DNA of 64,000 nucleotides from Gemmatimonadota bacterium (GTDB lineage Bacteria > Gemmatimonadota > Gemmatimonadetes > Gemmatimonadales > Gemmatimonadaceae), in NCBI GenBank assembly GCA_016714015.1, contig JADJNZ010000009.1, positions 56,321 through 120,320 of the forward strand, read 5' to 3'. Positions within the stretch are counted from its first letter, which is position 1. The number at the start of each line of letters is the position of its first letter. Position numbers and translations under genes: made by a program. Below the pieces are notes generated by a model. It saw nothing but the letters and a program-made list of their open reading frames with translations, was not told the DNA's origin and ran no database searches. Positions 10,840-64,000 of the stretch are shown one piece after another.

Positions 10840-12000
10840 ATGATGGACTCGACCACGCACGGGATGTCCCGCCCACTCGCGGGCGCGATGCTCGCCGCCG
10901 CCCTCCTCGGCGGCGCGGATGTCGCGACGGCTCAGGACCCTTATCGTCCGCTCCGCGTGGGGCAGCCGGTGACGGCGACCCTCGCCGAGTCGGATCCGCG
11001 CTACGGGCAGCGCGGCCGCTTCCACGCCTACAAGCTCGAGGCGAAGGCGGGCCAGCGCTTCGAGGTCACGATGTCCTCGGACGACGTGGACTCGTACGTG
11101 TGGGTCGCGCGGTTCGTGAGCGGCCTCACCGAGGAGTTCGCCGCGGACGACGACGGCAGCGGCAACACCAATGCGCGACTCCGCTTCCGCGCCGCGACCG
11201 CGGGGACCTACGTGGTGGTCGCGCAGTCGCTCGACGCCGCGGCGAAGGGCGCGTACGAGCTGCGGGTGACCGAGCTCCCGCCGGCCCCCGTGGCGACGGC
11301 GATCGCGCTGCAGGTGGGCCAGGCGCGCGAGGGGGCGCTCGATGATCGCAGCCCCATCCTCGACGAGGGACCGGGCGAGACGCGCTACCAGCTCTACACC
11401 TTCTCGGCGCGCGGCCAGCGCGTGCGCGTGACGGTGCGCTCGGGCGCGTTCGACGCGATGGTGCGCGTGACGAAGGTGACGACGGGAGGGGAGGAGGAGG
11501 TCGGGACCGACGACGACAGCGGCGGCGGCTCCGACGCGCAGCTCATCCTCACGGCCAACGGCGACTATCGCGTCTACGCGCGGCCGCTCGAGAGCGAGAA
11601 GACGGGACCGTTCACCGTCTCGGTGAGCGAAGTGGTCGTGCAGCCGGTGACGACGCGGCCCCTGCCGCTCGGCCAGACGACCGAGGCGTCGCTGACCGCG
11701 GACGATCCGTCGCTCGAGGACGGACGGCAGTTCCACCAGTACGCGATCACCGGCCGCCCGGGCGAGCGGTTCGTGATCACGATGCGGTCCACGGACTTCG
11801 ACGCCTTCCTCGACTGGGGAAGCCTGTCGAACAACGTCTTCGAATCCTCGGCGACGGACGACGACAGCGCGGGCGAGACGAACGCGCGGCTCGAGATCAC
11901 GCTGCCGGCGGACGGGACGTTCGTGCTGCGGGCGATGGGGCTGGAGAGGGGGAAGCTCGGGGCGTACACGATCGCGCTCGAGCGGCGGATGTCGAAGTGA
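10840..12000 (+). CDS. Secreted protein with three PPC (pre-peptidase C-terminal) beta-sandwich repeats
   Basis: Signal peptide; repeated DDDGSGN/DDDSGGG/DDDSAGE..NARL motifs. Confidence 0.85.
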   Translation: MMDSTTHGMSRPLAGAMLAAALLGGADVATAQDPYRPLRVGQPVTATLAESDPRYGQRGRFHAYKLEAKAGQRFEVTMSSDDVDSYVWVARFVSGLTEEFAADDDGSGNTNARLRFRAATAGTYVVVAQSLDAAAKGAYELRVTELPPAPVATAIALQVGQAREGALDDRSPILDEGPGETRYQLYTFSARGQRVRVTVRSGAFDAMVRVTKVTTGGEEEVGTDDDSGGGSDAQLILTANGDYRVYARPLESEKTGPFTVSVSEVVVQPVTTRPLPLGQTTEASLTADDPSLEDGRQFHQYAITGRPGERFVITMRSTDFDAFLDWGSLSNNVFESSATDDDSAGETNARLEITLPADGTFVLRAMGLERGKLGAYTIALERRMSK

Positions 12001-12010
12001 CGGGGCGATG

Positions 12011-12105
12011 TGAGTTGTGAGTTGTGAGTGGTGAGTTCGAACGGCGATGCGGGATTCGTGACCCCGCATCGCCGTTCGAACTCACCACTCACAACTTACA
12101 GCTCA
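12011..12105. terminator. Long palindrome between convergent genes, probable bidirectional terminator or REP-like element
   Basis: Perfect 34-bp arms 12020-12053 and 12063-12096 with a 9-nt loop; built of GTGAGTT-type heptamers. Confidence 0.75.
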
Positions 12106-12141
12106 CCACTCGTCGTTCACCGCGAATCCCGCACCCCGCGA

Positions 12142-13941
<1,800 letters not shown>

Positions 13942-34855: not shown

Positions 34856-34948
34856 AGCATGTGAGGTCGGCGATCGCGATGCGCGTTTTCGGCGCCGCGC
34901 GAAATGGCGGGGTGCCGACCAGCGGCATCGGGAAGCGGATGTTCCCGC

Positions 34949-35932
34949 ATGGCCCAAGGACCGACGTTGCTCGCGGTGCTCCGCGACCGCCTCCGCACGC
35001 GGCACTACAGTCCGCGCACCGCCGAATCGTACGAGGGGTGGGTGCGGCGGTACGTGCGGTTCCATGGGCGCCGCCACCCGCGCGAGATGGACGTGAAGGA
35101 GCTGCGGGATTTCCTGACGCATCTCGCGCGCGACCTCAAGGTGAGCGCGAGCACGCAGAACCAGGCGCTCGCCGCGATCCGGTTCCTGTATGAGGTGGTC
35201 CTCGAGCGGCCGATGGCCGCGCCGACCGATCATCTGGTCGCCAAGCGTCCGACCCGGCTTCCGACGGTCCTCTCGGCGGAGGACGTGGACCGAGTGCTCG
35301 GCGCGATGCGTGGCACGCCGCGGCTGATGGCACAGCTGCTGTACGGCAGTGGCCTTCGCGTGATGGAGTGCTGCACCTTGCGGGTGAAGGACCTCGACCC
35401 GGGCCGCGGCGAGCTGACCGTGCGGCGCGGCAAGGGCGGCACGGACCGCCGGACCATGCTGCCGGAGGGGGTGCTGGTCGGACTGCGCGAGCACCTGAAG
35501 GAGATGCGGGAGCAGCATGCGCTCGACGTGGCGCGCGGGGCGGGGTACGTCGCGTTGCCTGGCGCGCTGCGCGCGAAGCTCGGCCCCGAGTCCGGCCGTC
35601 GCTGGGAGTGGCAGTGGCTCTTCCCGGCCACGCGCGAGTACTTGGATCCGGAGTCGGGCGAGCGTCGTCGCCACCATCTCCACGAGACCGTCGTGCAGCA
35701 GTCGGTGACCGCAGCCGCGCGGGAAGTGGGCCTGAGCCAGCGGGTGACGTGTCACACGCTCCGTCACTCGTTCGCGACGCACCTGCTCGAGGCGGGGTAC
35801 GACATCCGGACGATACAGGAGCTGCTTGGCCACCGGGACGTGAGCACGACGATGATCTACACCCATGTGCTGAACCGTGGCGGGCTGGGGGTTCGGAGCC
35901 CGCTGGACGGGCTACCTCGTCGTCGGCGCTGA
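34949..35932 (+). CDS. intI: Integron integrase (tyrosine recombinase)
   Basis: [32 protein letters not shown], integron-specific insert ([25 protein letters not shown]), [35 protein letters not shown]. Confidence 0.98.
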
Positions 35933-36099
35933 GCGCGGCGCGGGGGCCGAATTAGACAGACCGGTCCAATTCACCCAAGCGGAGGCGGACGGGGGGAACG
36001 CGGCAGCTATGGCGTTCTCCTGCTGGGGGTTGCGGGGTGGCGGTCTTCGGGCGGAACGTTAGAGTGGCGGCTCGGCCTGGGGGATCTGGTGGGATTGGA

Positions 36100-36124
36100 C
36101 AGGTCAAGCCAATACACGTTATGC
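36100..36124 (+). other. Putative attI site (core GTTATGC at 36118-36124), downstream of intI
   Basis: First core site without an upstream attC hairpin; complementary to R'' GCATAAC of attC1. Confidence 0.7.
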
Positions 36125-36452
36125 GGCCGGGAACGAGTGAACTGGCAACGGCTTCCCCGCAGGTGTCGCCCGCGCCGACCCGCCTGGCCCCGCTGAACTC
36201 GGCCGTCGTGTCTTCTCTTTGGGGGGTGCGCTCGATCAGATCTGTCTGGCACCGCGGCCGGTCGCGCTCCGGTGATCTCGATTGCTCGCGCCAGCACGGG
36301 TGCCACGCGAGGTAGCGGTCCGCACGCCGGCTGGGCAAGACGTTCGCCTCTCGCAATGCCGCCGCATAACGCGGGTTGGTGACCGATGGCCGGCTATTGA
36401 TGGCGGCCGCTCCGCGGCCGCATTATTGGATCGGCCACGGCACAACCAAACG
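36119..36452 (+). other. Cassette 1, ORF-less (family A), 334 bp
   Basis: Bounded by core 36118 and attC1; no convincing gene; homologous to family C. Confidence 0.75.
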
Positions 36453-47078: not shown

Positions 47079-47212
47079 GCCTAACGGAGGTTGGTGCAGT
47101 CGGCCGCGTTAGGGAAGCAGGTGGGCGGCCGCGCTTTATCGTACACTTCGGTACGGCGCGGCCGCCCACCTGCATTTTATGAAAGCGGCCGCAGCACAAC
47201 CAAACGTTAGCC
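47079..47212 (+). repeat. attC14
   Basis: gcctaac...gttagcc. Confidence 0.95.
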
Positions 47213-47225
47213 GGAGCAACAAGCA

Positions 47226-47720
47226 ATGCTGCTACGCCTGTTGTTACTGCTTGCGTTCCTCGCGCCGCCAGGGATCGCACAGGAACGCCTGGAGCCTGAC
47301 GTGCTTGCGGCAATCGCTAGGCTCGGTGAACGGCGTACTCTGAACCTCGTCTCGGGGTGGCGGGACTCAATTCCGGTGCGGACTCTCGTCCTGTCTGCGC
47401 GAGGCTTCTCGTCAGCGGATTCCGGGCTTGTGCTCGCGCCGCTGCGCGCGGCATTCGGCGCGAACGAGCCGGACTCGCTGCCCGCGCATTGGTTTAGCGT
47501 CGAGATCAGATTGCGCAGCGTTTCCGTCGACACCGTTGTGATTGAGTGGAGCGAGGTAGTAGACTCTCGCTGCCCGAAAGTCGGTGAGTGGGGCACCATG
47601 CTCATCGAAACGTTGCCGTTCACGCGAGCACCAGACGGCAAGTGGTCGAGTAGTACGTCTGGAGAGTTCGGTCAGACGCGTTGGCTTGCCTCTTGCCCCG
47701 ATCGGTCCCCGCCCGGCTAA
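47226..47720 (+). CDS. Cassette 15: secreted hypothetical protein
   Basis: MLLRLLLLLAFLAPPGIA signal; duplicated as cassette 21. Confidence 0.8.
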   Translation: MLLRLLLLLAFLAPPGIAQERLEPDVLAAIARLGERRTLNLVSGWRDSIPVRTLVLSARGFSSADSGLVLAPLRAAFGANEPDSLPAHWFSVEIRLRSVSVDTVVIEWSEVVDSRCPKVGEWGTMLIETLPFTRAPDGKWSSSTSGEFGQTRWLASCPDRSPPG

Positions 47721-47847
47721 CGACGGTTGGTGACCGATGGCCGGTTAGGGTAGCAGGTTGGCGGCCGCGCTTTATCGTTCCTTTCGGACCGGCGCGGCCG
47801 CCAACCTGCATCTATTTGAACGGCCACGGCACAACCTGACGTTAGAC
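47715..47847 (+). repeat. attC15
   Basis: ggctaac...gttagac. Confidence 0.95.
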
Positions 47848-51133: not shown

Positions 51134-51261
51134 CGGCAGTTGGTGCAGGCGGCCGCGCTGGGGTAGCGGTTGGGCGGCCGTGCTTTATCGTACCTGAAGG
51201 TACCGCACGGCCGCCCAACCGCATTCTATGGAAGCGGCCGCTGCACAACTTGACGTTAGCC
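51128..51261 (+). repeat. attC20
   Basis: ggctaac...gttagcc. Confidence 0.95.
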
Positions 51262-51274
51262 GGAGCAACAAGCA

Positions 51275-51769
51275 ATGCTGCTACGCCTGTTGTTACTGCT
51301 TGCGTTCCTCGCGCCGCCAGGGATCGCACAGGAACGCCTGGAGCCTGACGTGCTTGCGGCAATCGCTAGGCTCGGTGAACGGCGTACTCTGAACCTCGTC
51401 TCGGGGTGGCGGGACTCAATTCCGGTGCGGACTCTCGTCCTGTCTGCGCGAGGCTTCTCGTCAGCGGATTCCGGGCTTGTGCTCGCGCCGCGCTGCGCGG
51501 CATTCGGCGCGAACGAGCCGGACTCGCTGCCCGCGCATTGGTTTAGCGTCGAGATCAGATTGCGCAGCGTTTCCGTCGACACCGTTGTGATTGAGTGGAG
51601 CGAGGTAGTAGACTCTCGCTGCCCGAAAGTCGGTGAGTGGGGCACCATGCTCATCGAAACGTTGCCGTTCACGCGAGCACCAGACGGCAAGTGGTCGAGT
51701 AGTACGTCTGGAGAGTTCGGTCAGACGCGTTGGCTTGCCTCTTGCCCCGATCGGTCCCCGCCCGGCTAA
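51275..51769 (+). CDS. Cassette 21: near-identical duplicate of cassette 15
   Basis: 164 aa; differs from cassette 15 at LR vs RC. Confidence 0.8.
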   Translation: MLLRLLLLLAFLAPPGIAQERLEPDVLAAIARLGERRTLNLVSGWRDSIPVRTLVLSARGFSSADSGLVLAPRCAAFGANEPDSLPAHWFSVEIRLRSVSVDTVVIEWSEVVDSRCPKVGEWGTMLIETLPFTRAPDGKWSSSTSGEFGQTRWLASCPDRSPPG

Positions 51770-51896
51770 CGACGGTTGGTGACCGATGGCCGGTTAGGGT
51801 AGCAGGTTGGCGGCCGCGCTTTATCGTTCCTTTCGGACCGGCGCGGCCGCCAACCTGCATCTATTTGAACGGCCACGGCACAACCTGACGTTAGGC
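51764..51896 (+). repeat. attC21
   Basis: ggctaac...gttaggc. Confidence 0.95.
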
Positions 51897-52412: not shown

Positions 52413-52546
52413 GCCTAACGGCAGTTGGTGCAGACGGCCGCGCTGGGGTAGCGGTTGGGCGGCCGTGCTTTATCGTACCTGAAGGTACCGCACGGCCGCC
52501 CAACCGCATTTTATGAAAGCGGCCGCTGCACAACTTGACGTTATGC
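52413..52546 (+). repeat. attC22
   Basis: gcctaac...gttatgc. Confidence 0.95.
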
Positions 52547-52845
52547 GGCGCCTCACCCGTCGCGATCGAGGTCGAAGCTCGGCCGAGATCGCTTGGGGTG
52601 AACAGCAACCACGAGGGACGACCGCACCGCACCCGTGGAGGTTGACCCGGTCCGCCCCTCGTCGCTCGTGCTGTCGGGACCTCTGCACGTTGGCCCCAGG
52701 TAGGGCGGATGGTTCGCCGCGCGATTCGTTCGCTCCCTGGCACCGGGCGGCGGCCTCGCATAACGCCGCTTGGTGCCGATGGCCGGCTATTGATGGCGGC
52801 CGCTCCGCGGCCGCATTATTCAATCGGCCACAGCACAAGCCAACG
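52541..52845 (+). other. Cassette 23, ORF-less (family B1), 305 bp
   Basis: No ORF confined to the cassette; paralog of cassette 25. Confidence 0.75.
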
Positions 52846-52851
52846 TTATGC
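52758..52851 (+). repeat. attC23 (short class)
   Basis: gcataac...gttatgc. Confidence 0.95.
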
Positions 52852-52883
52852 CGATGTCTCACGCATCCTGACGAGGAGGGCTA

Positions 52884-53132
52884 GTGATCTCTGCGCGCGA
52901 GCATGCTCATGAGATGGCACGCCGCTGGCCCACGTGGTTCGGCGCGCAAGTCTTCGTTGCGATCTATGGTGTGAATGCGTTGCTCGATCAGCTGTTCGAG
53001 CTCCTCGGTGTCGCCGGATGGGAGATGTCGCCCTTTGTCATGCTCGTCGGCGCGATCGCTGGTGCGTTCGCGGCTACTGGAGTCACGCGCGCGAGCCGTC
53101 CAACCGGAGGCACTGGATCGCGCACGGCATAA
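52884..53132 (+). CDS. Cassette 24: small two-TM membrane protein
   Basis: GAGGAGG RBS; stop inside R''. Confidence 0.8.
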   Translation: MISAREHAHEMARRWPTWFGAQVFVAIYGVNALLDQLFELLGVAGWEMSPFVMLVGAIAGAFAATGVTRASRPTGGTGSRTA

Positions 53133-53261
53133 CGGCAGTTGGTGACCGACGGCCGCGTTACTGAAGCAGGTGGGCGGCCGTGCTCTTTTGTACCTTTCGG
53201 TATCGCACGGCCGCCCACCTGCATTCTATTGAAGCGGCCGCGGCACAACTTGACGTTATGC
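53127..53261 (+). repeat. attC24
   Basis: gcataac...gttatgc. Confidence 0.95.
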
Positions 53262-53560
53262 GGCGCCCCACCCGTCGCGATCGAGTTCGAAGCTCGGCCG
53301 AGATCGTTTGGGGTGAACGGCAACAACGATGGACGGCAGCACCTCACCCGTGGGACTTGACCCGGTCCGCCCCTCGTCGCTCGTGCCGTCGGGACCTCTG
53401 CACGTTGGCCCCAGGTAGGGCGGATGGTTCGCCGCGCGATTCGTCCGCCCCCTGGCACCGGGCGGCGGCCGCGCATAACGACGCTTGGTGCCGATGGCCG
53501 ACTATTGATGGCGGCCGCTCCGCGGCCGCATTATTCAATCGGCCACAGCACAAGCCAACG
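53256..53560 (+). other. Cassette 25, ORF-less (family B2), 305 bp
   Basis: Same length as and colinear with cassette 23. Confidence 0.75.
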
Positions 53561-53566
53561 TTATGC
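53473..53566 (+). repeat. attC25 (short class)
   Basis: gcataac...gttatgc. Confidence 0.95.
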
Positions 53567-53588
53567 CGACCTCTGCAAGGAAAGTCTC

Positions 53589-53858
53589 ATGGAGCTCGTG
53601 ATCCTCCCACAGGGCCTGTTCCTCTTCTACGGTGCCCTCGTCCTCAGCTGCGGCGTCGGACTCGGCGCTGTGCTCGGTCGAAATCTGCTCCGCCGTCGGC
53701 ACGCTCCGATTCCTGAGCCGCCAGACCTCCTCCAGCAGCGCGTCGCGCTCCTCGAGCAAGAACTCGACGCGACGGTCGCACAGTTGGCGCGGCTCACCGA
53801 GGAACGCGAGTTCATGCGCGAGTTGGAACGGCCGCGCCCGAAAGGCGTCGCGGCATAA
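53589..53858 (+). CDS. Cassette 26: single-TM plus coiled-coil protein
   Basis: AAGGA RBS; TM then LQQRVALLEQELDATVAQLARL. Confidence 0.8.
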   Translation: MELVILPQGLFLFYGALVLSCGVGLGAVLGRNLLRRRHAPIPEPPDLLQQRVALLEQELDATVAQLARLTEEREFMRELERPRPKGVAA

Positions 53859-53986
53859 CGACGCTTGCTGCTGATGGTCGCGATGCGGATGGGTTTGGCG
53901 GGGCCTCCGTGATGACCTGGGTTGGTTGCGGAGGCCCCGCCAAACCCTTTTTATATGAGCGTCCACAGCAGAAGCAAACGTTAGGC
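53853..53986 (+). repeat. attC26 (divergent sequence)
   Basis: gcataac...gttaggc; own 19-bp inner stem. Confidence 0.9.
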
Positions 53987-54007
53987 GCACGGAACTGAGG
54001 TCTGCCT

Positions 54008-54463
54008 GTGTCGATATCGATACACGTCGCGTTGCAGGCCGAGCTGCGTCGAATCGGCGACACGTCGTCCCTGACAGCGATGGGCTCAAGCGGGCGCCTG
54101 GGCAAAGCTCCGACCGCAGCGCAGATTCTCGTTCGTCTTCAGGAACTGCCGGCCGGAGCGGACGCTGCGGCACTCGTTGCGGCTGTCTATCAACCGAGTG
54201 ATACCGAGGTCTCGGATGTTCGCGCCGCCTTGCGGCGTACGTTCGAGCGCTGCGAGTTGAGTGTCGAAGAGCGCGTGCTGGTCGAGATCGACCGCATCGC
54301 CCCGCGCCTGCCCGAAGGAGTCGGAGTGAGCTTCCCAAGCGGCCCCCGCTTGGCAGCGATTTTGGAGATGTTACGAACATTACCGAGTGGTGCAGGCGCG
54401 GAGGTTCTCGGCGCCGCCCTCGCCGCTGATCTCGATCCGCCGGCGCCTAACGATGGTTGGTGA
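54008..54463 (+). CDS. Cassette 27: hypothetical protein with an internal repeat
   Basis: ILVRLQELPAGADAAAL vs ILEMLRTLPSGAGAEVL; stops in L''. Confidence 0.7.
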   Translation: MSISIHVALQAELRRIGDTSSLTAMGSSGRLGKAPTAAQILVRLQELPAGADAAALVAAVYQPSDTEVSDVRAALRRTFERCELSVEERVLVEIDRIAPRLPEGVGVSFPSGPRLAAILEMLRTLPSGAGAEVLGAALAADLDPPAPNDGW

Positions 54464-54577
54464 CCGATGGCCGGCTAGGGTAGCGGGTTGGCGGCCACGC
54501 CTTATTGTGAAGGACGGGTCGGCGTGGCCGCCAACCCGCATCTATTTGATCGGCCACGGCACAACCTGACGTTAGAC
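54445..54577 (+). repeat. attC27
   Basis: gcctaac...gttagac. Confidence 0.95.
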
Positions 54578-60204: not shown

Positions 60205-60338
60205 GGCTAACGGCGGTTGGTGCAGATGGCCGTGCTAGGGTAGCGGGGCGGCGGCCCCGCCTTATCGTACTACTTGGGTCGGCGTGGCCGCCGCCCCGCA
60301 AATTGTTGGAACGGCCACGGCACAACCTGACGTTATGT
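60205..60338 (+). repeat. attC37
   Basis: ggctaac...gttatgt. Confidence 0.95.
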
Positions 60339-60389
60339 GGACGCGAGCGCGGGATGGCTCTACGACCGCTCGCCCCCTAGATTCCGTTC

Positions 60390-60584
60390 ATGCGTCTCTC
60401 CTTCGAGCTCACCGAGGCCCAGCAGGGCCAGCTCAACGCCATCGCCCAGCGGCTGAACGTGCCGGTGGACGCACTGGCGGCTGCCGCGTTGCGTGACCTG
60501 CTCGACCGTCGCGAGGCCGCCTACGAGACCGCGGCCCGCCATGTCGTCGAGAAGAACGCCGAACTCTACCGAAAGCTCGCGTAG
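60390..60584 (+). CDS. Cassette 38: antitoxin (RHH-like DNA-binding, Doc partner)
   Basis: 64 aa ending HVVEKNAELYRKLA, directly upstream of doc. Confidence 0.85.
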   Translation: MRLSFELTEAQQGQLNAIAQRLNVPVDALAAAALRDLLDRREAAYETAARHVVEKNAELYRKLA

Positions 60585-60599
60585 CGGGCGCCCGTTCGC

Positions 60600-60998
60600 G
60601 TGGCGACCCGGTTCCTTTCGCTCGCAGAAGTCCTCGATCTCTACAGCCGCGTGTTGGTCGCCGGCGGGGGCGCGTCTGCTATTCGCGATCTCGGCGCGCT
60701 GGAGTCCGCGCTCGCGCAGCCACGTGCGACGTTTGCCGACGAGGATCTCTATCCGTCGCTCGCCGAGAAGGCGTCCGCCCTTGGCTTCTCGCTCATCCTC
60801 AATCACCCGTTCGTCGACGGCAACAAGCGCATCGGCCACGCGGCGGTTGAAGTCTTTCTGGTGCTGAACGGCTTCGAGCTGTCGGCAGGGATTGATGACG
60901 CCGAACGGGTCATCCTCGGCGTTGCGGCGGGGACAATCAGTCGGGACGAGTTCACGACGTGGATCCGAGAATCTCTCGTCGCATTCCCGGCACCGTAG
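60600..60998 (+). CDS. doc: Cassette 38: death-on-curing (Fic-fold) toxin
   Basis: IRDLGALESALAQP, NHPFVDGNKRIG. Confidence 0.93.
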   Translation: MATRFLSLAEVLDLYSRVLVAGGGASAIRDLGALESALAQPRATFADEDLYPSLAEKASALGFSLILNHPFVDGNKRIGHAAVEVFLVLNGFELSAGIDDAERVILGVAAGTISRDEFTTWIRESLVAFPAP

Positions 60999-61015
60999 CG
61001 GATCGGACGGGCGCC

Positions 61016-61149
61016 ACATAACGGCAGTTGGTGCAGACGGCCGCGCTGGGGTAGCGGTTGGGCGGCCGTGCTTTATCGTACCTGACGGTACCGCACGGCC
61101 GCCCAACCGCATCTTATGGAAGCGGCCGCAGCACAACTTGACGTTAGCC
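61016..61149 (+). repeat. attC38
   Basis: acataac...gttagcc. Confidence 0.95.
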
Positions 61150-61151
61150 GG

Positions 61152-61370
61152 ATGAGAAATGGATTCGAGCATCCCATGAACGCGAATTCCGAGGCTCCTG
61201 GAACGGGAGCGATTCGGCGATGGGGCGGCATGTTCGCGACGGTGTTGTTTGCGGCGAGCCTGGTCGTGCACATCCGTGACGGATCATCAGTGGGACACCT
61301 TATGTCCGCGGCTGGTATGACCGTCGTGTTCGGCGCGCTTACATGGCAGCAGTGGCGGCGGCCACGGTGA
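61152..61370 (+). CDS. Cassette 39: small two-TM membrane protein
   Basis: 72 aa, two hydrophobic helices. Confidence 0.7.
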   Translation: MRNGFEHPMNANSEAPGTGAIRRWGGMFATVLFAASLVVHIRDGSSVGHLMSAAGMTVVFGALTWQQWRRPR

Positions 61371-61396
61371 CGCCGCCTTGGATGTCGAGCGTCACC

Positions 61397-61530
61397 GGCT
61401 AACGGAGGTTGGTGCAGACGGCCGCGTTAGGGAAGCAGGTGGGCGGCCGTGCTCTTTTGTACCTTTCGGTATCGCACGGCCGCCCACCTGCATCTTATGG
61501 AAGCGGCCGCAGCACAACCAAACGTTATGC
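61397..61530 (+). repeat. attC39
   Basis: ggctaac...gttatgc. Confidence 0.95.
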
Positions 61531-61861
61531 GGGCGGGGGACAGCCAACTGGCGTCGGCGTCACCGCGTGGGAAGTACAGCCCGAGGCATCGACGCCGCTG
61601 AACGTCGGCGTCCTCAATCCCACCGCTTTGGGGAGCGCGCTCCGCCAGGATCAAGCGACGCCGCGGCTCGGAGGGCTTCGCCGGGCGTCCGCGCGCCCGC
61701 ATTGCGTACGAGGTGGTCGGTCCGGCGCGCGCGCGAGGGTGGGCGCGCGGGGGTGAGTACGGCGGGCCACCGCATAACGGCAGTTGGTGCAGATGGCCGC
61801 GCTATTGATGGCGGCGCGCTCCGCGGCCGCATTATTGAAGCGGCCACAGCACAACCACACG
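61525..61861 (+). other. Cassette 40, ORF-less (family C1)
   Basis: 337 bp; only a 24-codon 5' ORF. Confidence 0.8.
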
Positions 61862-61867
61862 TTATGC
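61772..61867 (+). repeat. attC40 (short class)
   Basis: gcataac...gttatgc. Confidence 0.95.
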
Positions 61868-62198
61868 GGGCGGGGGACAGCCAACTGGCGTCGGCGTCAC
61901 CGCGTGGGAAGTACAGCCCGAGGCATCGACGCCGCTGAACATGGGCGTCCTCAAGCCCACCGCTTTGGGGAGCGCGCTCCGCCAGGATCGAAGCGCCGCC
62001 GCGGCTCGGAGCCGCCTCGCCGGGCGTCCGCGCGCTGGCATTGCTTACGAGGTGGTCGGTCGGCGCGCGCGCGAGAGTGGGCGCGCGGGGGTGAGGACGG
62101 CGGGCCGCCGCATAACGGCAGTTGGTGCAGATGGCCGCGCTATTGATGGCGGCCGCTCCGCGGCCGCACTATTGGGGCGGCCACTGCACAACCAAACG
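61862..62198 (+). other. Cassette 41, ORF-less (family C2)
   Basis: 337 bp paralog. Confidence 0.8.
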
Positions 62199-62204
62199 TT
62201 AGCT
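62110..62204 (+). repeat. attC41 (short class)
   Basis: gcataac...gttagct. Confidence 0.95.
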
Positions 62205-62222
62205 GGACGGGAGCGGAGATCA

Positions 62223-62633
62223 GTGAAGCCGAATGCCGCCAGTTTGCGCGCGTTGTGCGAGTGCTACACGCCGATCGGCGTGATCTATCCGTGGAGACGC
62301 GCGCTCAAGCGCGCCGGTTACGCGCGGGTCCGATCACAGTTGGTGCCTGACTGGCTGGTGCCGGTGCTACGAGACAATCCGCAGCTGATCGAGGGATGGG
62401 TGCGCTACGTGGAGGACAAGCGAGGCGACTTCGGCTGGATCCTGCAGCAGCGAGCCGACCTGCGCTGGGTGGTCTGCTATCGCGCCGACTGCCAGTGGCC
62501 GGCCACGTACGAGGACGGCGCAATCGCGTGCGCGCAGTTCCTGGTCCGCGAGTTCGAGGTGCTGTACGGCAGGCCCCGTGGGAACGCAAACGGTGGCACT
62601 TTGCACCGGAGTCCGGGTGTGGCCGCCAGCTAA
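62223..62633 (+). CDS. Cassette 42: hypothetical protein
   Basis: GGAG RBS; stop inside R''. Confidence 0.7.
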   Translation: MKPNAASLRALCECYTPIGVIYPWRRALKRAGYARVRSQLVPDWLVPVLRDNPQLIEGWVRYVEDKRGDFGWILQQRADLRWVVCYRADCQWPATYEDGAIACAQFLVREFEVLYGRPRGNANGGTLHRSPGVAAS

Positions 62634-62761
62634 CGGCAGTTGGTGACCGACGGCCGTCTAGGGGAGCAGGTGGGCGGCCGTGCTCTTTTGTACCTTTCGG
62701 TATCGCACGGCCGCCCACCTGCATTTCATGAAAGCGGCCGCGGCACAACTTGACGTTATGC
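62628..62761 (+). repeat. attC42
   Basis: agctaac...gttatgc. Confidence 0.95.
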
Positions 62762-63091
62762 GGGCGGGGGACAGCCAACTGGCGTCGGCGTCACCGCGTG
62801 GGAAGTACAGCCCGAGGCATCGACGCCGCTGAACATGGGCGTCCTCAAGCCCAACGCTTTGGGGAGCGCGCTCCGCCAGGATCGAGCGCCGCCGCGGCTC
62901 GGAGCGCCTCGCCGGGCGTCCGCGCGCTGGCATTGCTTACGAGGTGGTCGGTCCGGCGCGCGCGCGAGAGTGGGCGCGCGGGGGTGAGGACGGCGGGCCG
63001 CCGCATAACGGCAGTTGGTGCAGATGGCCGCGCTATTGATGGCGGCCGCTCCGCGGCCGCATTATTGGGGCGGCCACTGCACAACCAAACG
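62756..63091 (+). other. Cassette 43, ORF-less (family C3)
   Basis: 336 bp paralog. Confidence 0.8.
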
Positions 63092-63097
63092 TTATGC
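63003..63097 (+). repeat. attC43 (short class)
   Basis: gcataac...gttatgc. Confidence 0.95.
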
Positions 63098-63427
63098 GGG
63101 CGGGGGACAGCCAACTGGCGTCGGCGTCACCGCGTGGGAAGTACAGCCCGAGGCATCGACGCCGCTGAACATGGGCGTCCTCAAGCCCACCGCTTTGGGG
63201 AGCGCGCTCCGCCAGGAGCGAGCGCCGTCGCGGATCGGAGCGCTTCGCCGGGCGTCCGCGCGCCGGCATTGCGTACGAGGTGGTCGGTCCGGCGCGCGCG
63301 CGCGGGTGGGCGCGCGGGGGTGAGGACGGCGGGCCGCCGCATAACGGCAGTTGGTGCAGATGGCCGCGCTATTGATGGCGGCCGCTCCGCGGCCGCATTA
63401 TTGGAGCGGCCACAGCACAACCAAACG
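63092..63427 (+). other. Cassette 44, ORF-less (family C4)
   Basis: 336 bp paralog. Confidence 0.8.
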
Positions 63428-63433
63428 TTATGC
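63339..63433 (+). repeat. attC44 (short class)
   Basis: gcataac...gttatgc. Confidence 0.95.
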
Positions 63434-63763
63434 GGGCGGGGGACAGCCAACTGGCGTCGGCGTCACCGCGTGGGAAGTACAGCCCGAGGCATCGACGCCG
63501 CTGAACGTGGGCGTCCTCAATCCCACAACTTTGGGGAGCGCGCTCCGCCAGGATCGAGTGCCGCCGCGGCGCGGAGCGCTTCGCCGGGCGTTCGCGCGCC
63601 GGCATTGCTTACGAGGGGGTCGGTCCGGCGCGCGCGCGAGGGTGGGCGCGCGGGGGTGAGGACGGCGGGCCGCCGCATAACGGCAGTTGGTGCAGATGGC
63701 CGCGCTATTGATGGCGGCCGCTCCGCGGCCGCATTATTGGAGCGGCCACAGCACAACCAAACG
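63428..63763 (+). other. Cassette 45, ORF-less (family C5)
   Basis: 336 bp paralog. Confidence 0.8.
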
Positions 63764-63769
63764 TTAGGG
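63675..63769 (+). repeat. attC45 (short class)
   Basis: gcataac...gttaggg. Confidence 0.95.
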
Positions 63770-63791
63770 CGACGAGACCGGCATCGATCGT

Positions 63792-64000
63792 ATGCTAAGC
63801 GCGCACACCGCTCGTTGGCTGTTGTGTCCCCTCGCTGCCGTCGGCTCATGCGGAGCGACAGGCATCGCGTCGCGGGGCGTCCAAGGGTGGCTCCAGACAC
63901 GCCTCGGCCAGGCGACGCTTGAGGCAGTGCTTCCGCTAGATGGACAGGAAGCCGTCCGCCTCGCGCTCGAGGCCCTCGTGTTCGTCTTGGCCGGTTCGCT
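63792..64000 (+). CDS. Cassette 46: probable exported protein, truncated by the window end
   Basis: MLSAHTARWLLCPLAAVGSC..., open to the end. Confidence 0.55.
   Translation, partial: MLSAHTARWLLCPLAAVGSCGATGIASRGVQGWLQTRLGQATLEAVLPLDGQEAVRLALEALVFVLAGS

Follow-up and report, generated by a model that had tools for sequence, protein, structure and literature searches.

Provisional assignment of a short, amplified cassette family in a chromosomal integron of Gemmatimonadota to the gene-less cassettes

The 64,000-nt stretch of a Gemmatimonadota bacterium analysed here (contig JADJNZ010000009.1 of assembly GCA_016714015.1, positions 56,321 to 120,320 of the forward strand; this whole stretch is the window in what follows) carries an integron cassette array, and the question it raises is what is represented by a cassette of only 336–337 bp which is present there in five diverged copies, has its own attC each time and contains no recognisable gene. 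An earlier note on this DNA had read the copies as an amplified, integrase-shuffled family of structured non-coding RNAs or cis-regulatory units. With about even confidence, they are assigned here to a lineage-specific 'gene-less' cassette family in the sedentary chromosomal integron of a Gemmatimonadaceae-like activated-sludge bacterium, while the further proposal that this is a passenger-poor or selfish cassette is made more tentatively.

The five copies (c1 to c5, type A) were recovered at the positions and with the boundaries that had been proposed for them, each with its own attC (Table 1). Every copy has a G|TTATGC boundary, a 250-nt body and a terminal attC of 86–89 nt, and the five are arranged as two tandem runs, of two and of three copies, with one unique cassette between them. 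Their mean column identity is 97%, with 2–18 substitutions in pairwise comparison, and as indels are found in the body of c2 and in the attC of c1, the earlier description of copies diverged by substitutions and 1-nt indels is borne out. A 58-mer of the type-A unit occurs five times, as against none expected from shuffles. The family cassettes are the shortest in the array, have the highest body G+C content (0.74–0.76, compared with 0.58–0.67 in the others) and form the only paralogue group of the array with more than two members. The most variable point of their alignment is at columns 99–101 (e.g. 63190–63192), where the states CCG, ACG, CAA, CTG and CGG are encountered among the copies and the metagenome variants.

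Table 1. Positions of the integron platform, the six family cassettes and their parts within the window (ORF, open reading frame)
Feature	Position	Strand	Remarks
intI, integron integrase	34904..35932	+	NCBIfam TIGR02249, 407 bits (cutoff 265); Pfam Phage_integrase and SAM_4
attI end	36090..36118	+	crossover at ...CAGGTCAAGCCAATACACG|TT; same end in related loci L005, L006 and L008
c0, type B, 334 bp, first array cassette	36119..36452	+	short attC; directly at the attI crossover ...CAATACACG|TTATGCGG
c0 ORF, 64 codons	36121..36315	+	starts at the R' core ATG
c1, type A, 337 bp	61525..61861	+	one 1-nt indel in attC
c2, type A, 337 bp	61862..62198	+	three 1-nt indels in body
c3, type A, 336 bp	62756..63091	+	
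c4, type A, 336 bp	63092..63427	+	one base different from metagenome copy L001
c5, type A, 336 bp	63428..63763	+	
Invariant 5' block, c4 example	63092..63170	+	same first 79 nt in c1, c2, c3 and c5
24-codon ORF in c4, MRAGDSQLASASPRGKYSPRHRRR then stop	63094..63168	+	equivalents 61527-61601, 61864-61938, 62758-62832 and 63430-63504
c4 short attC	63339..63427	+	R'' GCATAAC to G of R'

The count of five stood, but a sixth, diverged member (c0, type B) lies outside the region to which the family had been confined. It has the only other short attC of the array and became apparent when the attI region was read after a weak 42-nt match at 36119; blastn and tblastx searches with the body in the remainder of the window returned GC-rich noise only and missed it. 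The global alignment of the c0 body with the type-A consensus scores 69 (shuffles, -32 +/- 11) and contains ungapped blocks of 59–75% identity. A family profile built for nhmmer matches c0 with E = 2.8e-41, a value obtained with c0 as part of the model, and matches an independent type-B relative outside the profile, the metagenome locus L004, with E = 1.5e-28. As related genomes keep the attI end but carry another first cassette, c0 belongs to the cassettes and not to the integron platform. The sole database relative of the c0 ORF is P0003, which comes from L004 and is 63% identical, with the reading frame switching within the ORF, and at the nucleotide level the identity of c0 and L004 is U-shaped, falling from 95% over the first 95 nt to about 55–60% in the middle and rising again to about 85% at the 3' end.

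The cassette family moves as a unit, as it occurs in different cassette contexts in many wastewater metagenomes. The G|TT-bounded unit is found in at least six contexts. In the window it stands at attI and behind cassettes 35 and 38; of the metagenome loci, L001 and L002, both from one wastewater metagenome, have single type-A copies flanked by unrelated cassettes, and in L004, from another metagenome, a long attC precedes a c0-type copy. These contexts, with their exact boundaries, and the two tandem runs sustain that part of the earlier note in which an amplified, integrase-shuffled cassette family was proposed. Near-identical type-A copies are present in many wastewater or activated-sludge runs, and sequence shared with c0 (at most one fifth of its sampled words) is present in groundwater, soil and freshwater runs. 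Contigs in which a short attC passes directly into a family start were obtained from sequencing runs X1 and X10 (type-A start) and X48 (X-numbers denote runs throughout), which is compatible with tandems or circular cassettes. A body 21-mer and a degenerate attC pattern each gave 0 matches among the GTDB species representatives and likewise 0 matches among viral contigs. On a metatranscriptome contig of X27 the type-A cassette is preceded by TCGAATACTCG, which resembles an attI end (compare the junction upstream of 63090), so that type A may occupy the first array position in some strains. The unit has the features of an integron cassette, i.e. a foldable attC, G|TTRRRY boundaries kept in varied contexts and an array beside intI and attI, together with features of a gene-less cassette, namely six paralogues in the array and close homologues only in related genomes or wastewater metagenomes.

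The short attC itself is well preserved, with 5 of 88 columns variable among the five type-A copies in the window. The other type-A attCs differ from that of c4 by five substitution columns and one indel, and the c0 attC is closely similar, with an identical centre. The bottom strand of the short attC is predicted to fold as the canonical attC hairpin, with an R stem of 9 bp, a bulged L stem and a terminal hairpin (fold z of -5.1 for c4 and -4.1 for c0, compared with -10.1 for a long attC); an integrase substrate would be expected to fold in this way.

The body of the cassette is no conserved protein gene. No Pfam family matches any of the six frames of the cassette, and a word-indexed protein search with the six frames concatenated returned nothing, a result which low-complexity candidates may have swamped. 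An exhaustive HMMER search of frame +2, the most protein-like one, against 1.84 billion representatives returned only P0001, which is spurious, as this 112-amino-acid entry of a public catalogue is a gene call on L001 beginning in the upstream attC and reading TGA as Trp. Codon-position GC is flat in all frames, and the synonymous fraction in columns 80–250 is 19–35% in all six frames versus 29–31% expected by random change; the substitutions and indels by which bases 80–250 drift take no account of the reading frame. The earlier statement that no long frame is conserved holds for protein genes but not for the frame as such, as frame +1 remains without a stop through the whole 336-nt unit (112 codons) and gives rise to an artefactual 390-amino-acid ORF at 62750–63922. 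The ORFs starting inside the cassette on the plus strand are 24 and 50 amino acids long, a 79-amino-acid ORF on the minus strand begins in the attC, and neither the latter nor the open frame +1 has a coding signature. Gene-less cassettes have been defined by the absence of any ORF longer than 150–210 bp (Boucher et al. 2006; Blanco et al. 2024), a limit exceeded by these mechanical ORFs because stop codons are rare at 74–76% G+C.

Further candidates for the content of the cassette were tried and rejected. The 50-amino-acid ORF begins at an ATG at column 80 which is GTC in c1, is frameshifted in c2 and is dominated by non-synonymous changes. A +1 slip in the G5 run would open a body-filling ORF of 77 amino acids; G5 is present in every copy, and the resulting frame has neither homologues nor a synonymous excess. 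The sequence TTTGGGGAG is followed by no start codon and does not qualify as a Shine-Dalgarno site, and diversification of the variable middle by a diversity-generating retroelement is not indicated, as its substitutions are not specific to adenine and a reverse transcriptase is absent.

Only the attC and the 79 nt adjoining the recombination junction, a stretch which the earlier note had not singled out, show constraint. Variable columns number 0 of 79 in this 5' block and 24 of 168 in the middle among the five window copies (p = 1e-4), and 1 of 79 and 29 of 170 in an alignment of 11 type-A sequences, which consists of the five copies, L001, L002 and four contigs rebuilt from variant tables (p = 1e-4); the block is also free of variants on the contigs of a further four metagenomes which cover it. 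As type B also displays U-shaped conservation, it looks as if constraint or homogenisation acts on the sequence flanking the recombination junction, at the nucleotide level more than at the protein level. The block coincides with the 24-codon ORF, which spans columns 3–77 with the R'-core ATG (G|TTATGC) as its start codon, and the sole variant of the block (T44C in L002) is synonymous in this ORF. The same ATG starts a body-filling ORF in four other cassettes and shorter ORFs in cassettes 22 and 23. Over the first 13 codons type A and c0 have 9 of 13 residues in common and five codons that differ only synonymously (nominal p = 0.017, uncorrected for the choice of region and frame), which may be taken as a weak hint of ancestral coding. 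Codons 14–24 of type A and c0 are unrelated; relative to c0, type A has -1 and +4 indels with its stop codon between them, and the ORF opened by the common ATG has 24 codons in type A, 64 in c0 and no fewer than 81 in L004, the frame being shifted by a short indel. The differences within the type-B 5' block are about six non-synonymous to one synonymous, and an ATG or GTG stands 2 nt past the ORF stop in 10 of the 11 type-A copies.

In the gene-less reading, the family would descend from a small-ORF cassette whose start was the R'-core ATG; type A would now stop at codon 25, with the remainder decaying. It may have persisted and multiplied mainly because it is a short, well-recombining cassette with a distinctive 86-nt attC, and would have spread through excision and re-insertion by IntI as well as through unequal attC exchange. 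The conserved ends would reflect constraint or homogenisation around the junction, and if the host is affected at all, this would happen in cis, by transcription or translation that enters the array at the 5' block. Several observations weigh against this account. Simple decay does not explain the near-total invariance of the 5' block, synonymous sites included, which speaks for either a function or a very recent homogenisation. The block ends within 2 nt of the stop of the short ORF, which favours a translated product, and as open frames are cheap at 76% G+C, the argument for an ancestral ORF rests on few sites. The cassette is, moreover, probably transcribed, as it is present in metatranscriptome assemblies.

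An alternative, considered unlikely, is a micro-protein or leader-peptide cassette, where translation of the 24-codon ORF is functional and the remaining 170 nt are a dispensable 3' region; in a variant of it, this 3' region might serve as an attenuator via alternative GGCGTC/GACGCC pairings around the stop codon. Such a cassette would account for the match between the ORF and the invariant columns, for the synonymous nature of the only block variant, for the protein-like conservation of the N-terminal 13 codons between the subfamilies and for the start codon 2 nt beyond the stop, and would agree with the use of the same ATG by six other array cassettes. It is at odds with the lack of relationship between codons 14–24 of the two types, with the non-synonymous excess in the type-B block and with an ORF length that changes together with the frame from one relative to the next. 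Furthermore, the ORF has no upstream Shine-Dalgarno site, which other cassettes have, its product is hydrophilic and rich in Arg, Ser and Pro, like a random translation of GC-rich DNA, and 170 nt of unconstrained DNA conflict with a compact cassette build. A known short ORF with an effect on cassette expression is ORF-11 of class 1 integrons, which is located at attI1 and aids translation of the downstream cassettes. The 24-codon ORF is similar to it in being very short, in overlapping the recombination core and in that it may influence translation of the array; unlike ORF-11, which lies in attI directly upstream of the cassette it aids, the present ORF is followed by about 260 nt of non-coding sequence before the next cassette, and coupling to that cassette is thus unlikely.

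Likewise considered unlikely, though plausible by analogy with the Vibrio and Treponema cassettes, is that the family represents cis-regulatory 'promoter cassettes' carrying a transcription or translation signal that switches on silent downstream cassettes. There is precedent for this, as sense-strand promoter activity has been shown for three ORF-less cassettes of Treponema (Tansirichaiya et al. 2019, PMC6557892) and for the majority of 29 gene-less cassettes of Vibrio (Blanco et al. 2024, PMC11014356), and Treponema integrons have the same co-directional integrase orientation. The type-A copies also lie about 26 kb from attI, where Pc-driven expression should be weak, and their 5' block is conserved at the nucleotide level. 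The cassette is found in metatranscriptome assemblies of three studies (X25, X27, X29 and X33), where one contig of 504 nt contains a whole copy and then a different downstream cassette. In the same RNA runs the housekeeping genes of the organism occur at similar depth, with contigs that are unstranded and may include DNA carry-over; that the cassette has no greater depth than these genes speaks against a promoter, and the RNA data fit read-through transcription of the array and give no sign of a specially abundant RNA. A scan for sigma-70-like promoters on both strands of 60300–64000 found 0 where 0.4 were expected, which is weak evidence as Gemmatimonadota promoters are uncharacterised. The promoter activity of Vibrio cassettes is linked to AT-richness, whereas the body here has 74–76% G+C, and most copies in the runs of two and three would drive nothing but another copy. 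No intrinsic terminator was found in the cassette, and a reading of the conserved CTGAAC motif as an extracytoplasmic-function sigma promoter was discarded for its unsuitable spacing.

It appears very doubtful that integron arrays have in the 79-nt module a mobile, cis-acting control element of a new kind. Such an element would combine the R'-core ATG, the 24-codon ORF with its terminal Arg codons and, around the stop, GGCGTC/GACGCC pairings that exclude each other into a translated leader or attenuator, or a micro-peptide, which tunes read-through into downstream cassettes. If this were true, the element would ride its own minimal, integrase-amplified cassette, distinct from the AT-rich promoter cassettes of Vibrio.

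A structured non-coding RNA (decoy, antitoxin or riboregulator), as proposed in the earlier note, is highly improbable. The body lacks thermodynamic or evolutionary support as an RNA structure; its 249 nt fold no better than dinucleotide shuffles (z = +0.42 on the plus and -0.77 on the minus strand). Rfam searched at the gathering threshold returned for the window only a tRNA elsewhere and no match to the cassette, which agrees with the earlier impression that no recognised family is matched, and at E <= 1 it returned only miRNA-like matches on the attC hairpins (21–22 bits, compared with cutoffs of 59–268 bits). Covariation, assessed with RNAalifold, also fails to support the structure: the covariation term is +0.95, a penalty, for the 11 type-A sequences, where 1 of 83 pairs is compensatory, and becomes +1.5, again a penalty, with a changed consensus structure, when c0 is added.

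It had further been claimed that the variation spares four predicted stems, which is valid in a weak sense only. No pair of these stems is changed on both sides within type A, stems 1–3 are uninformative because their columns are invariant there, and the depletion of variable columns (5 of 43 in stems versus 27 of 130 outside) is not significant (p = 0.26). Stem 4 is weakened by G-U pairs in c2 and c3, as had been noted for a variant of it, and is broken in c1 (GCGCGCCCG) and in the metatranscriptome variant X33. With c0 included, one pair is changed on both sides and seven pairs are broken in c0, and the stems losing pairs there are three of the four (2 of 6 in stem 1, 2 of 4 in stem 2 and 4 of 9 in stem 4). 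The region that bears the stems (80–250) is the fast-drifting part of the cassette, with about 15–17% variable columns, and includes the three indels of c2. A structured RNA would find its best support in the several short GC-rich inverted repeats, in the presence of the cassette in RNA libraries and in the GGAGCGCGCTCC hairpin, the only stem to survive in c0, where it is retained through G-U pairs on the top strand. The X33 variant, from an RNA run, corresponds to 63280–63291 of c4 and has three clustered substitutions by which an imperfect GGTGG..CCGGC becomes a perfect GCGGG..CCCGC. This perfecting of a local hairpin could be counted in favour of a structure, but it looks like a template-switch correction of a quasipalindrome, which explains it equally well.

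Short-read assemblies do break at attCs, but an assembly artefact in which a single cassette was inflated by repeat misassembly is scarcely credible, as the copies differ at 2–18 positions and stand in two blocks with a unique cassette between them, and as independent metagenomes show both the junction of a short attC with a type-A start and single copies in other contexts.

The gene-less reading places the family beside the cassettes of Vibrio superintegrons, which are likewise complete with attC and contain no gene and no translated-search match in any frame. Boucher et al. (2006, PMC1382264) described the non-coding Vibrio cassettes as typically paralogous, lineage-restricted and highly conserved and proposed that they are either selfish or of use to the integron, and some gene-less cassettes are degenerated genes (Blanco et al. 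2024). The present family resembles them in its strong paralogy within one array, its homologues restricted to related genomes, its high nucleotide conservation and its possible origin, as some of the Vibrio cassettes are apparently derived from degenerated genes. It differs from them in its host phylum, in its body G+C content of 74–76% as opposed to the AT-rich Vibrio cassettes, in its length (336 bp versus 491–666 bp), in an attC shorter than all other attCs of the array (86 versus about 125 nt), in conservation that is concentrated in the first 79 nt and not spread over the whole length, and in that no sigma-70-like motif was found. With the Treponema-type integrons, from oral metagenomes, where promoter activity of ORF-less cassettes was measured in E. 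coli (Tansirichaiya et al. 2019), it shares an intI co-oriented with the cassettes and short ORF-less cassettes, whereas phylum and base composition are different and no sequence similarity was found.

The window (68.6% G+C) is a chromosomal segment with lepA, mfd, pilT, typA, a PPK2-family gene and a tRNA. The nearest named relatives of its IntI are integrases from metagenome-assembled genomes of Gemmatimonadetes and Gemmatimonadaceae (80% and 77% identity), and intI has the orientation of the cassettes, i.e. the co-directional, 'inverted' arrangement known from Treponema. No record was returned by exact look-ups for the integrase or for two window ORFs spanning repeat copies. Related Gemmatimonadaceae contigs (L005, L007 and L008) retain this chromosomal site, with TypA, PPK2, esterase, TspO-like and intI, and the attI end ...CAGGTCAA(G/T)CCAAT(A/T)CACG|TT is conserved among the integrase-relative loci, where L005, L006 and L008 continue into different first cassettes. 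These integrase-relative contigs (L005 to L009), which end at or shortly past attI, yielded 0 additional family members. In L008, the intI stop and attI are separated by roughly 1 kb (around 11006–12000) in which a unit of about 22 nt (CTCGCAGGCGCCTGACAGTCC-like) is tandemly repeated, and the first cassette after attI (around 12058–12250) is also very small and gene-less-looking, starts with TTATGCGAGCG and has a 21-codon ORF, MRATLRH...

The array starts at 36119 and reaches the window end, with 42 complete cassettes counted between 36119 and 63763 and one more running off the window. The 36 cassettes outside the family have attCs of about 125 nt and a plus-strand ORF filling most of the body. 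Cassette 34 (60333–61143), two cassettes upstream of c1, contains an ORF (60600–60995) of the Fic/DOC family (Pfam PF02661, E = 3.5e-16) and is probably a toxin-antitoxin-type cassette. Cassettes 14 (47207–47841) and 20 (51256–51890) are near-identical duplicates (3 of 635 nt differ), each with a 164-amino-acid ORF of no recognised family, and the neighbouring cassettes 22 (52541–53255) and 23 (53256–54571) are 94% identical over their first 314 nt and unrelated beyond, which points to a mosaic or fusion cassette.

Gene-less cassettes are already known from other bacteria, and the family is not a new class of RNA. It extends the pattern of amplified gene-less cassettes from the AT-rich integrons of Vibrio and Treponema to a GC-rich integron of Gemmatimonadota, where spurious promoters driven by AT-richness cannot be the explanation. 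As the unit is open in one frame, gene callers derive spurious proteins from it, such as the 390-amino-acid ORF and P0001. The 79-nt block is a defined piece worth testing, and the cassette, which is common in wastewater metagenomes, could serve to mark cassette turnover in this lineage.

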